Shown here piece by piece: positions 45,364-49,839 of a DNA stretch of 64,000 nucleotides (its first letter is position 1; each line of letters starts with the position of its first letter). A program made the position numbers and the translations under genes. The DNA comes from Escherichia phage PMBT57: sequence record MG770228.1. One strand, 5' to 3'. The notes under the pieces are model-generated. The model was not told where the DNA came from. It did not search any database and saw only the letters and a list, made by a program, of their open reading frames with translations.

Positions 45364-45381
45364 GTTGCTTCGCAACTTATG
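45364..45381 (+). promoter_or_regulatory. candidate vRNAP hairpin promoter (P-a)
   Basis: Perfect 5-bp stem / 3-nt loop gttgc-TTC-gcaac (template-strand loop GAA), followed by TTATGGA with G 11 nt from the loop centre; same architecture as the elements at 45833 and 49820. Confidence 0.55.
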
Positions 45382-45427
45382 GACATGTTGTCCGTATCTT
45401 ATCAATCAACTATTGGAGACTAATACT

Positions 45428-45754
45428 ATGACTACTCAGGCTAACGTTCGTATGACTGTAGGAACTCTGTTGGGTACTGTTAACGAAGCAGCAACTACTG
45501 TAGCTGATACATTCGGTACTGCTACTAAAGCAGTAGGTATGCTTAATCGTTATGTAACTAAACAAGCAGATAAACAAATCATTCGTGACAAATTAGAAAT
45601 GCATGAGTTTACCAATAAACTTATTGAAGAAACTGCAATGCAAGAAGCTATTCGTCAGAAACAAATCTTAGACTTCTGCAAAGATGAACAAAACAAAGAA
45701 TTGTTCTCTAATGCCTATGACCGTCTTAGCAAAATCTTAGCAGACTCTAAATAA
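45428..45754 (+). CDS. hypothetical early protein (108 aa)
   Basis: Start moved to the ATG preceded by GGAG (track start upstream is within the promoter hairpin); followed by a hairpin terminator. Confidence 0.6.
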   Translation: MTTQANVRMTVGTLLGTVNEAATTVADTFGTATKAVGMLNRYVTKQADKQIIRDKLEMHEFTNKLIEETAMQEAIRQKQILDFCKDEQNKELFSNAYDRLSKILADSK

Positions 45755-45766
45755 CAACAAACAAAT

Positions 45767-45790
45767 GGAGGCTCCTCGGAGTCTCCTTTT
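45767..45790 (+). terminator. rho-independent terminator
   Basis: 8-bp stem ggaggctc / gagtctcc (one G-T pair) with a ctcg loop, followed by TTTT. Confidence 0.5.
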
Positions 45791-45830
45791 ACATAGAACC
45801 GATAGTTCAATAACTATCTACTTTAAAGAT

Positions 45831-45850
45831 AAGAAGCTCCGCTTCTTTTG
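45831..45850 (+). promoter_or_regulatory. candidate vRNAP hairpin promoter (P-b)
   Basis: aagaagc-TCC-gcttctt (7-bp stem, 3-nt loop; template-strand loop GGA) followed by TTTTGGA with G 11 nt from the loop centre. Confidence 0.6.
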
Positions 45851-45958
45851 GATGAAGTAATGCATCCAATCCTGTATGAAATCTTAACCTTTTGTCTGGG
45901 ATTACTTACCGACAAAGTAGTCTCAACTAATCAAAATCAACTATCTGGAGAGTACAAA

Positions 45959-46345
45959 ATGGCTATCACTACTTTTGCTAAAACCTTTGGTCAGACTTCT
46001 ACTAAAACTGAATCCAACAATGGTTCTCGCCCGAAAGCTCAGTTCTGGATTAACGTTGGCTACGTAGCTAATGAAGGCACTGAAGATGAACGTTTCATCT
46101 CTCTGCCTACTGGTATTCCACTGGATACTCAGGAGCATCTGCCAACCAATTCCTCTAACGAAGACTTCCGTGCAATGCGTTGTGCACAGAACGATTTGTT
46201 AGACCAACTGATGGAATTTGCTAAGACTCTGGAACCGGGTCAAGAAGGAGTTATCTCCTTGCAAGTTCAACTTCGTCGAGTTAAAGAAGAAGCTCCTGCT
46301 ATCTCAGCAAGTGAGAATAAATATGCTCGTAAACTGACTTTCTAA
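45959..46345 (+). CDS. hypothetical early protein (129 aa)
   Basis: Start moved to the ATG preceded by GGAGAG (track start 45848 is TTG and sits inside the promoter hairpin); a strong terminator follows. Confidence 0.55.
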
Positions 46346-46352
46346 TCTCTAT

Positions 46353-46380
46353 AGGACTACCTTCGGGTAGTCCTTTTTAA
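46353..46380 (+). terminator. rho-independent terminator
   Basis: aggactacc - ttcg - ggtagtcct (9-bp stem, TTCG loop) followed by TTTTT. Confidence 0.75.
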
Positions 46381-46487
46381 TTTTAACTATCTAAATACTA
46401 AAGTAGAGATTTTGACCCTTTTCGACGAAGGGATACTAAAAAGTAATGGATAGTTTGAGCAGATGTTTTAGAAGAAGGAGTATACAG

Positions 46488-47805: not shown

Positions 47806-47836
47806 TACTAAGCCCTCTTCTTATTTTTATCGTGGT
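47806..47836 (+). terminator. rho-independent terminator
   Basis: ggagggggc ... gccctcttc stem (with G-T pairs) followed by TTATTTTTAT. Confidence 0.5.
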
Positions 47837-47866
47837 TATTAAGCAACTATCTTAGAGGAAGGAATA

Positions 47867-48082
47867 ATGGAACAGTTAAACTACGGTTATAAGATTAAAC
47901 GCAATCAAGTAAGAGGTTCTTGGTTATTTCTCGTTTATGGTAAACCAATCTATGAATTACATCGTGGAGAGAAATCCAAGACCTATTACGTAACTCATAT
48001 TGCTACAGGAAAAACTCCTGCATGTGCAGGATTGCTTCGTGATGCAATTATGAAAGCATGTATGTTAGAAGGACTTCTATGA
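47867..48082 (+). CDS. hypothetical protein (71 aa)
   Basis: RBS GAGGAAGG upstream of the ATG; track ORF. Confidence 0.55.
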   Translation: MEQLNYGYKIKRNQVRGSWLFLVYGKPIYELHRGEKSKTYYVTHIATGKTPACAGLLRDAIMKACMLEGLL

Positions 48083-48393
48083 ACCAAATCATTGCTATCC
48101 CGCAGCATAAAGCTCGTATTGCTGACAGGAATATTCGTATTCATTATCCAATGCCTTTGAGTAATCCATTTCAGAAAAATGAGAGAACCACGGATGAAGA
48201 TATAGCAGCAGCTTATGAGGCATATCTTCGTAACCGTTTGGTAAGTGGTGACAAGCTCATTACGGCTGAAATGGAACGAATTGCTAAATTCGTTATGGAT
48301 ACTACTGACAAACCAGTTGGCCTCATCGGTAATGAACTGGAAGTGAATGTAATCCGTAAGATTATTATGGAGGCTCTTAATGGGAATCAGTGA
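48079..48393 (+). CDS. hypothetical protein (104 aa)
   Basis: Start moved to MNQ, overlapping the upstream stop (ATGA); track ORF frame. Confidence 0.55.
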   Translation: MNQIIAIPQHKARIADRNIRIHYPMPLSNPFQKNERTTDEDIAAAYEAYLRNRLVSGDKLITAEMERIAKFVMDTTDKPVGLIGNELEVNVIRKIIMEALNGNQ

Positions 48394-48556
48394 ATCCCAG
48401 GCTATGGCTATTAAACAGTTAGCCTTCAACTGCCTTAGTGCTATGAAGGCATTTAATGAAGCAAAAACTTTCCCTGACCAGAATAAAGCTCGTATTCAAC
48501 TTTATCAGTCTAAGAAAGATTTTGAAGAATATCTGGAAAGTATTACGGTGAAATAA
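48380..48556 (+). CDS. small hypothetical protein (58 aa)
   Basis: ATG preceded by GGAGG; below the track cutoff; ends where the next gene starts. Confidence 0.4.
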   Translation: MGISESQAMAIKQLAFNCLSAMKAFNEAKTFPDQNKARIQLYQSKKDFEEYLESITVK

Positions 48557-48876
48557 TGAAAACAATATTAATTGTTCATGATGCTGATTTTAATGATGTT
48601 GATAAAATGATGCGTAATATTGATTATGTAGCTCAGACAACTCCAGCATTTAAAGAAGAATTTACTCTATATTGTGATGCTAATTCACCATTAGTTCCCA
48701 TTCTGAAAAAAGCTGGTTTACCCTTCTCTACAGATAATTTCCCTGAAGAACCTGATTATGTAATTTCATTTATTTATGACTTACATGACGGTTCAGAACC
48801 GAGTGAATTGGCTATGAGTCAATGGAAATCCAGAAGACCCGTATATGCATTTCAGGTAGTTAAATCAAGGGGTTAA
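48556..48876 (+). CDS. hypothetical protein (106 aa)
   Basis: Track ORF; acidic; no family recognised. Confidence 0.55.
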   Translation: MKTILIVHDADFNDVDKMMRNIDYVAQTTPAFKEEFTLYCDANSPLVPILKKAGLPFSTDNFPEEPDYVISFIYDLHDGSEPSELAMSQWKSRRPVYAFQVVKSRG

Positions 48877-48878
48877 CT

Positions 48879-49247
48879 ATGTTAGGTGATAACACTAATG
48901 CTCTGTTTGGGGTGTCAGCCAGACCCATTATCATTGTTAATAAACATCATGGTAAGAAAGGTGAATATATTGGGCGTGGTTCTCCTCTGGGTAATCCATT
49001 CGTTATTGGTAAAGATGGAACCAGAGAAGAAGTAATTGCCAAATATAAAGTATGGCTGCAAGAACAGATTGATAAAGGTAATCCAGATGTACTGGATGAA
49101 TTAAATCGTCTTGGTAATAAAGCCATTGATGAAAAAGGATTAGCTTTACAGTGCTTCTGTTATCCAAAACCTTGTCATGGCGAGGTTATTAAAGAGAAGT
49201 TAGTGAAAGCTATGTATAACTATTTTGTGGAAAATCCTAATGGATAA
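48879..49247 (+). CDS. DUF4326-family protein
   Basis: IIIVNKHHG..EYIGRGSPLGNPFVIGKDGTREEVIAKYKVWL...LQCFCYPKPCHGEVI matches my recollection of the DUF4326 pattern (VN.K....YIGR.S.WGNPF..G...R.EVI..Y..WL...C.C.P..CHG.V). Confidence 0.6.
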   Translation: MLGDNTNALFGVSARPIIIVNKHHGKKGEYIGRGSPLGNPFVIGKDGTREEVIAKYKVWLQEQIDKGNPDVLDELNRLGNKAIDEKGLALQCFCYPKPCHGEVIKEKLVKAMYNYFVENPNG

Positions 49248-49425
49248 ACAATGCAAATGTGGTAAAGGCTATGTATCCCAATGGGATGGTAAATGTGGTC
49301 ATTGTAGAACCAAGAAAGAACAACGTGACCATGAATATGCACTTCAGGAAATGATTGTACCTGTTGAGAATTTAGGTATGGCTCCACTTGAGGCTTACAA
49401 ATACATAAGGAGATTATGCAAATGA
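49240..49425 (+). CDS. small zinc-ribbon protein candidate
   Basis: CKCGKG ... CGHC arrangement (two CxxC-like pairs) in a ~61-aa ORF wedged between the DUF4326 and macro-like genes; start uncertain. Confidence 0.4.
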   Translation: MDKQCKCGKGYVSQWDGKCGHCRTKKEQRDHEYALQEMIVPVENLGMAPLEAYKYIRRLCK

Positions 49426-49802
49426 AAGAAGTATTCGTATTTGGTTCTAACCTTGCTGGTGTACATGGTGCAGGTGCTGCAAAGACAGCATATAAGAAAC
49501 ATGGAGCCAGATGGGGTAAAGGGCATGGTCATTACGGTGACAGCTATGCCATTCCCACTAAAGATACCAATATCAAAACGATGACTATTGAAGACATTCG
49601 TACATTTGTAAACGCCTTCATTGTCTATGCTGCTAATCATCCAGAACTTAACTTTAAAGTTACTCGTGTAGGTTGTGGATTAGCTGGTATTGATGATTCT
49701 GTTATGGCCTCTATGTTTGAAAATGCCACTGATAACTGTTCCTTTGACTTAGCATGGAAAAGTTACTTAGGGGATGATTTCAACTACTGGGGAACGTTCT
49801 AA
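49416..49802 (+). CDS. macro-domain-like / Rossmann-like small protein (possible ADP-ribose binding)
   Basis: VFVFGSNLAGVHGAGAAKTAY loosely resembles the macro N-terminal Gly-rich motif and VTRVGCGLAGID the macro I-x-x-G-x-x-G motif; the protein is short (128 aa) for a macro domain, so the call is tentative. Confidence 0.35.
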   Translation: MQMKEVFVFGSNLAGVHGAGAAKTAYKKHGARWGKGHGHYGDSYAIPTKDTNIKTMTIEDIRTFVNAFIVYAANHPELNFKVTRVGCGLAGIDDSVMASMFENATDNCSFDLAWKSYLGDDFNYWGTF

Positions 49803-49819
49803 CTCATACGTTAGGCAAT

Positions 49820-49839
49820 AAGCTGCTCCGCAGCTTTTG
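49820..49839 (+). promoter_or_regulatory. candidate vRNAP hairpin promoter (P-c); may double as terminator for the upstream gene
   Basis: aagctgc-TCC-gcagctt (7-bp stem, 3-nt loop) followed by TTTTGG with G 11 nt from the loop centre; shares the GC-TYC-GC core with the hairpins at 45364 and 45833; sits upstream of the RNAP II genes. Confidence 0.55.

Follow-up and report, generated by a model that had tools for sequence, protein, structure and literature searches.

The early promoters of coliphage N4 are the closest described system. According to a review, there are three of them in the leftmost 10% of the N4 genome, conserved from -17 to +1, each with a GC-rich heptamer centred at -11, a stem of 5 to 7 bp and contacts at -11A/G, -10G, -8G and +1C (PMC4496689). 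An N4 promoter requires the template-strand loop 5'-G(-10) R(-11) A(-12)-3' and a -13G:-9C closing pair, and it depends on gyrase-driven extrusion and on E. coli SSB (PMC4496689). The structures of the virion polymerase vRNAP bound to an N4 promoter hairpin have been solved (PMC4496689, PMC13492108). T7-type promoters are likewise read by a single-subunit polymerase with a specificity loop and an intercalating hairpin (PMC4496689). However, they are double-stranded, whereas the N4-type promoter is a single-stranded hairpin that needs gyrase and SSB. In Pseudomonas phage LUZ7, ONT-cappable-seq located nine early start sites, and the early hairpin promoters also have a stem of at least 4 bp, a 3-nt loop, a preference for a G start and an injected vRNAP (PMC9163698).

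We analysed a window of 64,000 nucleotides from Escherichia phage PMBT57 (MG770228.1), which belongs to an Enquatrovirus genome. Over positions 45200-50000, its identity is 99.2% with phage vB_Eco_AL25 and 98.3% with N4. N4 nt 1 corresponds to position 45275 of the window (an offset of 45274), and no difference was found over the first 206 nt (N4 nt 1-206). Three intergenic hairpins, here called S1, S2 and S3, correspond to N4 nt 90-102, 557-573 and 4546-4562, respectively, of 70,153, that is, to the leftmost 6.5% of that genome. The assembly of the window is permuted, which moves these sites from the left end to 45-50 kb. All three are identical to the corresponding N4 sites from -17 to +7, and their positions, the downstream genes, the polymerase and its contact residues are all the same as in N4. 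The sole substitution lies just upstream of the P2 stem, where the window has agaT and N4 has agaG.

The three hairpins of the original prediction, with stems of 5 to 7 bp and 3-nt loops, are real, and their stems are perfect over 5, 7 and 7 bp. S1 (45364..45382, + strand, covering -17 to +2) consists of GTTGC-TTC-GCAAC at 45364-45376, exactly where it had been placed, followed by TTATGG; its loop centre (-11) is at 45370 and the first G at 45381. It is the template (-) strand that carries the functional hairpin of P1, GTTGC-GAA-GCAAC. S2 (45831..45851, + strand) and S3 (49820..49840, + strand) had been located correctly and drawn too short, at 45833-45845 and 49821-49835. The 7-bp stem of S2, AAGAAGC-TCC-GCTTCTT, covers 45831-45847, with the loop centre at 45839, and that of S3, AAGCTGC-TCC-GCAGCTT, covers 49820-49836, with the loop centre at 49828. 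At both sites, TTTTGG overlaps the last two bases of the stem, and its first G is at 45850 in S2 and at 49839 in S3. The core GC-T(T/C)C-GC is shared by all three sites, so that the template-strand loops are the purine triplets GAA (S1), GGA (S2) and GGA (S3) inside GC-NNN-GC. The distance from the loop centre to the first G of TGG within TT(A/T)TGG is exactly 11 nt in every case, as had been proposed, in comparison with 13-14 nt from the hairpin centre to the start in LUZ7 (PMC9163698), whose core sequence is also unlike that of the window; the hairpins of Ab09 and Pollock served as further comparisons. Read on the coding strand, position -8 is C and positions +1 and +2 are both G at each site. 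On either DNA strand, the fold of lowest energy is the hairpin itself. The template cores GC-GAA-GC (P1) and GC-GGA-GC (P2 and P3) are exactly the mini-hairpins d(GCGAAGC) and d(GCGNAGC) (PMC13037366), which here sit in longer stems and act as a polymerase recognition element.

The sites were then aligned with the published N4 promoters, the comparison suggested with the original prediction. The 81-nt native N4 P1 template, which is transcribed in vitro by vRNAP (PMC13434306), matched positions 45332-45412 on the - strand at 81/81 nt with 0 mismatches, and the published P1 hairpin oligonucleotide likewise matched S1. The published P2 oligonucleotide, ...CCAAAAGAAGCGGAGCTTC, is the reverse complement of GAAGCTCCGCTTCTTTTGG at S2; the match covers the hairpin, the A4 spacer and the CC start, and this oligonucleotide is the one used in the crystal and cryo-EM structures (PMC13492108). 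Judged by sequence, S1 is therefore N4 P1 and S2 is N4 P2. At all three sites, the stem, loop, heptamer, -8G, +1C and position are those given in the review, and rifampicin-resistant initiation at +1, both in vivo and on single-stranded templates in vitro, has been published for the identical N4 sequences (PMC4496689, PMC13434306). S3, AAGCTGCTCCGCAGCTTTTGG, is also identical in N4, with its loop at N4 nt 4553-4555. A full-text literature search in all orientations found no N4 paper with the printed P3 sequence, and S3 is therefore named P3 by elimination. Transcription in PMBT57 is predicted to start at 45381, 45850 and 49839.

All three sites are co-oriented with the genes downstream of them, and, as originally noted, they precede early genes and the RNAPII genes. 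The first gene after P1 is the early gene gp1, encoding an RNAPII cofactor (45428..45754, + strand; 154-480 in the N4 record, and in the AL25 annotation). The first gene after P2 is gp2, also an early gene for an RNAPII cofactor (45860..46345, + strand), which starts at 45860 according to the N4 record and at 45960 according to AL25. Downstream of P3 lie gp15 (49877-50686, + strand) and gp16 (50698-51948, + strand), the N4 RNAPII subunits; S3 precedes the start codon of gp15 by 38 nt. The enzyme reading P1-P3, vRNAP gp50 (3500 aa), is encoded at 9644..20146 on the - strand. Its full-length alignment to the N4 vRNAP chains in the PDB is near-identical, and the nine promoter-contact residues listed in the literature (PMC4496689) are kept without exception (9/9; K114, R119, W129, K267, K268, K849, K850, D901 and R904 in mini-vRNAP numbering). 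Short dyad symmetry upstream of genes is also typical of operators, and the sites might be operators, palindromic and double-stranded, of a DNA-binding protein from the phage or the host, or else middle promoters of RNAPII. We consider this very unlikely. The conserved loop is asymmetric, the coding strand always being TYC and never GRA, which points to a strand-specific, single-stranded reader. Furthermore, N4 RNAPII promoters start at T and have two different consensus motifs (PMC9163698), and it is vRNAP that is seen bound to the hairpin in the solved structures.

Next, the sites were compared with chance expectation. The window contained 114 hairpins that combine a 3-nt loop with a perfect stem of 5 bp or more, against 75 +/- 8 in first-order Markov simulations, and for those closed by GC the expectation is about 2.2 per window. 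On both strands together, the heptamer GCTYCGC was found 4 times, with about 4 expected. Thus, neither the hairpin alone nor the heptamer alone is rarer than chance in the window, as would be the case if the three hairpins were chance inverted repeats with no function. Against this, the full motif GCTYCGC-N3-TTWTGG was found 3 times with 0.003 expected, the pattern having been derived from the same three sites, and hairpin, heptamer and TTWTGG occur together far more often than chance would give. The three sites also share one strand, are intergenic and lie within a span of 4.5 kb, and the sequences of P1 and P2 are exactly those of promoters used in experiments. The probability of a chance origin is negligible. 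Only S1, S2 and S3 combine the GC-NNN-GC core with a perfect stem of at least 5 bp on the two strands of the 64 kb. The fourth heptamer (- strand, about 26992-26998) was rejected as a further promoter; it has just a 3-bp stem and lies within an ORF. A search for further copies, which had been proposed, gave none in the 7 kb of AL25 beyond the window and no additional one inside the window. No Rfam family matched over 44000-52500.

The original prediction expected the hairpins to be conserved in related genomes, and they are kept across the genera of the relatives. The same core was found at equivalent places in KP8, PhAPEC7, ECBP1, BaqKoxi, Axy10, Axy12 and Paxi. At these sites, the GC-TCC-GC core and the TGG start are invariant, and the stem bases differ yet stay complementary. 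A covariation count is partly circular because the relatives' sites were chosen by a perfect stem of at least 5 bp. A test anchored on the heptamer escapes this circularity: in five Enquatrovirinae genomes, every + strand heptamer belongs to a perfect stem of 5 bp or longer and has TGG at the same distance behind it (15/15), and the other heptamers, in 14 genomes, all have stems of at most 4 bp (21/21). Hairpins equivalent to S3 were found upstream of the RNAP1 gene in KP8, BaqKoxi, PhAPEC7 and ECBP1, and the KP8 record labels its copy an "early promoter." The putative P1-P4 of Klebsiella phage KP8 and the sites of Gamaleyavirus, Rothmandenesvirinae and Pokkenvirus have in common with the window the GC-TCC-GC core, a 5- to 7-bp stem, a TGG start spaced 11 nt from the centre of the loop, and locations ahead of the gp1, gp2 and RNAP1 homologues. 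However, their stems are made of different bases with compensating changes, and KP8 has four copies against three in the window. The site before the gp1 homologue has a TCC loop in every relative with the GCTYCGC core; TTC (template -11A) is found only in N4 and the window. The GC-TYC-GC core was absent from the early region examined in Erwinia phages Frozen and phiEaP8 and in Rhizobium phage RHEph16, and the exact core is therefore limited to a clade.

It had been remarked that S3 could be mistaken for a terminator. The remark was reasonable, since S3 lies just past the gp14 stop codon (49802), has a 7-bp GC-rich stem followed by TTTT, two T of which are inside the stem, and folds as RNA at -10 kcal/mol. 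S3, and perhaps S2, might then act as an intrinsic terminator or as an RNA hairpin on transcripts that read through from upstream, or might combine such a role with that of a promoter. However, the stems of S2 and S3 end in TT, so that only TTGG follows the full stems, and a U tract is lacking at S3. A terminator scan did not call S1, S2 or S3, whereas it called five sites on the + strand of this region, all combining a 4-nt loop with a run of T; the AL25 terminator annotation omits S3, and the folding energies of the other hairpins of terminator type are -15 to -20 kcal/mol. A terminator-like hairpin with a T run after gp1 (45767..45790, + strand), separates the P1 unit from P2; similar sites are at 46353-46374, 47796-47821 and 51954-51979. 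Across genera, the TCC loop, the closing GC pairs and TGG at 11 nt are invariant while the stems vary, and this speaks against a terminator, which would not need them. The same architecture is an experimentally established promoter at P1 and P2. Therefore, with no U tract and with the loop and the +1 spacing conserved, it is improbable that S3 is a terminator, and the evidence favours a promoter.

The first 13 transcribed nucleotides of P1 form a hairpin of their own, GGACA-TGT-TGTCC (45381-45393), which has counterparts at this position in KP8, Axy12 and Zuri. Its third stem pair is changed from A:U to G:C in Axy12 and Zuri, and its fourth is U:G in Axy12. When compared with shuffled sequences, the leader hairpins with which the P1, P2 and P3 transcripts begin reached no significance (z = -1.4, -1.9 and +0.8, respectively). 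It is conceivable, though doubtful, that the P1 leader hairpin has a function in the P1 unit that has yet to be described, such as that of a cap-like stabiliser of the RNA 5' end or of a template-strand structure affecting promoter escape. P1 also lies inside the 390- to 440-bp terminal repeat of N4, so that a further copy of P1 is to be expected at the right end of virion DNA; no discussion of the role of this copy was found in the N4 literature examined.

Taken together, S1, S2 and S3 almost certainly represent P1, P2 and P3, the early promoters of an N4-like coliphage. The original reading of them as single-stranded hairpin promoters for an injected RNA polymerase, a promoter type among the most unusual on record, is supported by identity with N4 P1 and P2, by the relatives and by the cognate vRNAP. 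If they work as described in the N4 literature, host DNA gyrase would supercoil the incoming left genome end after injection, the inverted repeats would extrude as cruciforms, and E. coli SSB would melt the non-template hairpin, its counterpart on the template strand staying intact. The latter, 5'-GC-G(A/G)A-GC-3', would be a mini-hairpin of unusual stability, in which G and A form a sheared pair. Injected vRNAP would bind it through W129 and R119 (-11 purine), K114 (-10G), and D901 and R904 (-9C, -10G and -8G) and, 11 nt downstream of the loop centre, would begin the RNA with a G facing the template C. P1 would then serve gp1; P2, gp2 and the small early genes following it; and P3, gp15 and gp16 (RNAPII). 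Because the phage is about 98% identical to N4, this reading is correct yet already known: the P1, P2 and P3 hairpin promoters are well studied in N4, and their identification here brings no new biology. It is of use as a check on a reading made from raw sequence, and in annotation. Since the public records of AL25 and N4 carry no promoter features at these sites, such features could be added to both.

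The three small hairpins under study, S1, S2 and S3, are supported as the phage N4 early promoters P1, P2 and P3, and are thus, quite literally, a known feature. Their stems were defined by direct reading of the window plus a stem-extension script. On the + strand, S1 is GTTGC-TTC-GCAAC (45364-45376, 5-bp stem), S2 is AAGAAGC-TCC-GCTTCTT (45831-45847, 7 bp), and S3 is AAGCTGC-TCC-GCAGCTT (49820-49836, 7 bp), all without a mismatched pair. The predicted perfect stems of 5 to 7 bp with a 3-nt loop were thus borne out, while the extents originally predicted for S2 and S3 located the sites correctly but covered just the inner 5 to 6 bp of each stem. 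S1 is followed by TTATGG, and S2 and S3 are followed by TTGG. With the loop center counted as -11, +1 was the first G of the GG at each site (45381, 45850 and 49839), in agreement with the predicted 11-nt spacing. The complementary strand reads GAA in the S1 loop and GGA in those of S2 and S3, the purine template loops that had been proposed. The minimum-energy DNA fold of the 37-nt context was the hairpin, on either strand, at each site.

Taken alone, the single features were ordinary. The window contained 114 perfect hairpins (stem of at least 5 bp, 3-nt loop) versus about 75 in first-order Markov simulations, the expectation for GC-closed ones is about 2.2 per window, and the heptamer GCTYCGC was found 4 times on both strands versus about 4 expected. 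Their conjunction was not ordinary. Apart from S1 to S3, neither strand of the 64 kb carried a GC-NNN-GC hairpin whose perfect stem reached 5 bp, and these three were all intergenic, on the + strand and within at most 4.5 kb. The full motif GCTYCGC-N3-TTWTGG occurred 3 times versus 0.003 expected in the window; since this pattern was derived from the same data, the tests against conservation and the literature weigh more. The fourth heptamer, GCTCCGC at about 26992-26998 (-), has a stem of just 3 bp within a late-region open reading frame and was judged to be background rather than a further promoter.

A megablast search with 45200-50000 gave 99.2% identity to Escherichia phage vB_Eco_AL25 (AL25), where the coordinates coincide, and 98.3% identity to N4. 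N4 nucleotide 1 aligned to window position 45275, with the initial 206 nt identical; the window is thus an Enquatrovirus genome assembled in permuted form, and the N4 physical left end falls within it. N4 carries these hairpins too, at nt 90-102 (S1), 557-573 (S2) and 4546-4562 (S3), and differs from the window at these sites by a single base, immediately outside the P2 stem. As had been claimed, they lie upstream of early genes, namely gp1 (S1) and gp2 (S2), and of the RNAPII genes gp15/gp16 (S3). A nine-C run (45306-45314), identical in N4, lies upstream of P1, about 30 nt from the genome left end. The N4 direct terminal repeat was reported as 390 to 440 bp (PMC3715699), and P1 and most of gp1 are within it (window 45275 to about 45700), so that a second P1 is expected at the right end of virion DNA; the N4 record does not carry the second repeat copy. 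Beyond the window, AL25 68097-70977 holds a DNA polymerase gene whose annotation is split into pieces by an HNH homing endonuclease.

We compared the sites with published N4 promoters. These are conserved from -17 to +1, with a GC-rich heptamer that has its center at -11 and lies between inverted repeats (PMC4496689, Lenneman and Rothman-Denes review). Their stems are 5 to 7 bp, the virion RNA polymerase (vRNAP) recognizes template -11A/G, -10G, -8G and +1C, and extrusion and stability need a loop 3' A, a loop 5' G and a G:C closing pair (PMC4496689). All of these features were found at S1, S2 and S3. The native 81-nt template of N4 P1 that served for run-off transcription by vRNAP (PMC13434306) matched window 45332-45412 (-) with 0 mismatches, and the reverse complement of S1 is the published P1 oligonucleotide hairpin GTTGCGAAGCAAC. 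That of S2, including TTTTGG, is the published P2 oligonucleotide ...CCAAAAGAAGCGGAGCTTC (PMC13492108). The proposed comparison with P1 to P3 thus succeeded directly for two promoters, and S3 was assigned to P3 by elimination; no printed P3 sequence was found in the N4 literature searched, which did not include the primary promoter papers. The assignment was made because the genome has exactly three such sites (the suggested search for extra copies gave no further site in AL25 63001-70977), because S3 is located at 6.5% of the N4 map, and because it agrees with what we take to be the published P3 sequence. It was also made because gp15 and gp16 are reportedly transcribed by vRNAP (PMC13434306). 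The cognate enzyme, of 3,500 aa, is encoded at about 9644-20164 (-); it aligned over its full length, near-identically, to the N4 vRNAP chains in the PDB, and all nine reported promoter-contact residues (K114, R119, W129, K267, K268, K849, K850, D901 and R904; mini-vRNAP numbering) were at the expected positions.

Relatives were found via the gp15 protein, and the early regions of 14 Schitoviridae were compared. In KP8 (four copies), PhAPEC7 (three), ECBP1 (three) and BaqKoxi (two in the early part compared), the gp1, gp2 and RNAP1 homologues are preceded by hairpins that have a GC-TCC-GC core and, 11 nt from the loop center, a G; hairpins with this core and spacing occur in Axy10, Axy12 and Paxi as well. 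The KP8 copies had been published as putative promoters, and its record labels them "early promoter". Across 21 sites in an anchored alignment, G8, C9, T10, C12, G13, C14 and the +1/+2 GG were invariant, and stem positions -7/-15 and -6/-16 varied among A:T, T:A, C:G and G:C; since perfect stems had been a criterion for choosing the sites, this covariation count is partly circular. A heptamer-anchored test, unlike this count, is not circular. In Enquatrovirinae, 15/15 + strand GCTYCGC heptamers lay in perfect stems of 5 bp or more and had TGG at the correct distance, and the remaining 21/21 heptamers in the 14 genomes had stems of at most 4 bp. The conservation whose absence would have spoken against the original prediction was therefore found. 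More distant clades had hairpins related to these but not the same, with GC-TGC-GC in Zuri and C-TTC-G hairpins in Pollock and Ab09, consistent with the mapped LUZ7 early promoters (PMC9163698), and the GC-TYC-GC core was absent from the early regions compared of Erwinia and Rhizobium relatives. Together, the P1 and P2 identity, the promoter features, the relatives and the cognate enzyme support hairpin promoters of the N4 vRNAP type.

An invariant loop and a fixed TGG distance across genera are not properties of a terminator, and it is unlikely that S3 is an intrinsic terminator rather than a promoter. A terminator scan made five + strand calls in 44000-52500, at 44648-44665 (upstream of the genome left end, before gp71), 45767-45786 (after gp1), 46353-46374 (after gp2), 47796-47821 (after gp7) and 51954-51979 (after gp16). 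All five are strong, each combining a T run with a 4-nt loop; AL25 annotates most of them as terminators, and four divide up the early region into units. None of S1 to S3 was among these calls, S3 was likewise skipped by the AL25 terminator annotation, and its RNA fold was -10 kcal/mol, versus -15 to -20 for the five sites. S3 may nevertheless have a minor terminator role beside that of a promoter. No Rfam family covers S1 to S3 and they are missing from the annotation of both the N4 and the AL25 record, so the sole practical output is an annotation.

The mechanism known from the literature can be carried over to PMBT57 by sequence identity. Gyrase-driven supercoiling would extrude a cruciform, and EcoSSB would melt the non-template hairpin and spare the template hairpin GC-G(A/G)A-GC, a mini-hairpin of extraordinary stability that contains a sheared G:A pair (PMC13037366). 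The template hairpin would be bound by vRNAP, binding would open the plug and motif B loop of the enzyme, and RNA would start opposite template +1C; we infer starts at 45381, 45850 and 49839. The predicted P1 transcript opens with a hairpin, GGACA-TGT-TGTCC (45381-45393), that is identical in KP8 and reads GGGTA-TGT-TGCCC in Axy12 and GGGCA-TGT-TGCCC in Zuri, with a compensatory A:U-to-G:C change at the third stem pair in the latter two; in the window, it was not significant against shuffles (z = -1.4). The predicted P2 transcript opens with GGATG-N8-CATCC (45850-45867), enclosing the ATG at 45860, where gp2 starts according to the N4 record (10 nt after +1), versus 45960 in the AL25 record. 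Sigma-70-like promoter matches were depleted in 44000-52500 (11 found versus 26.6 ± 5.1 in shuffles), which fits with early genes being independent of the host polymerase.
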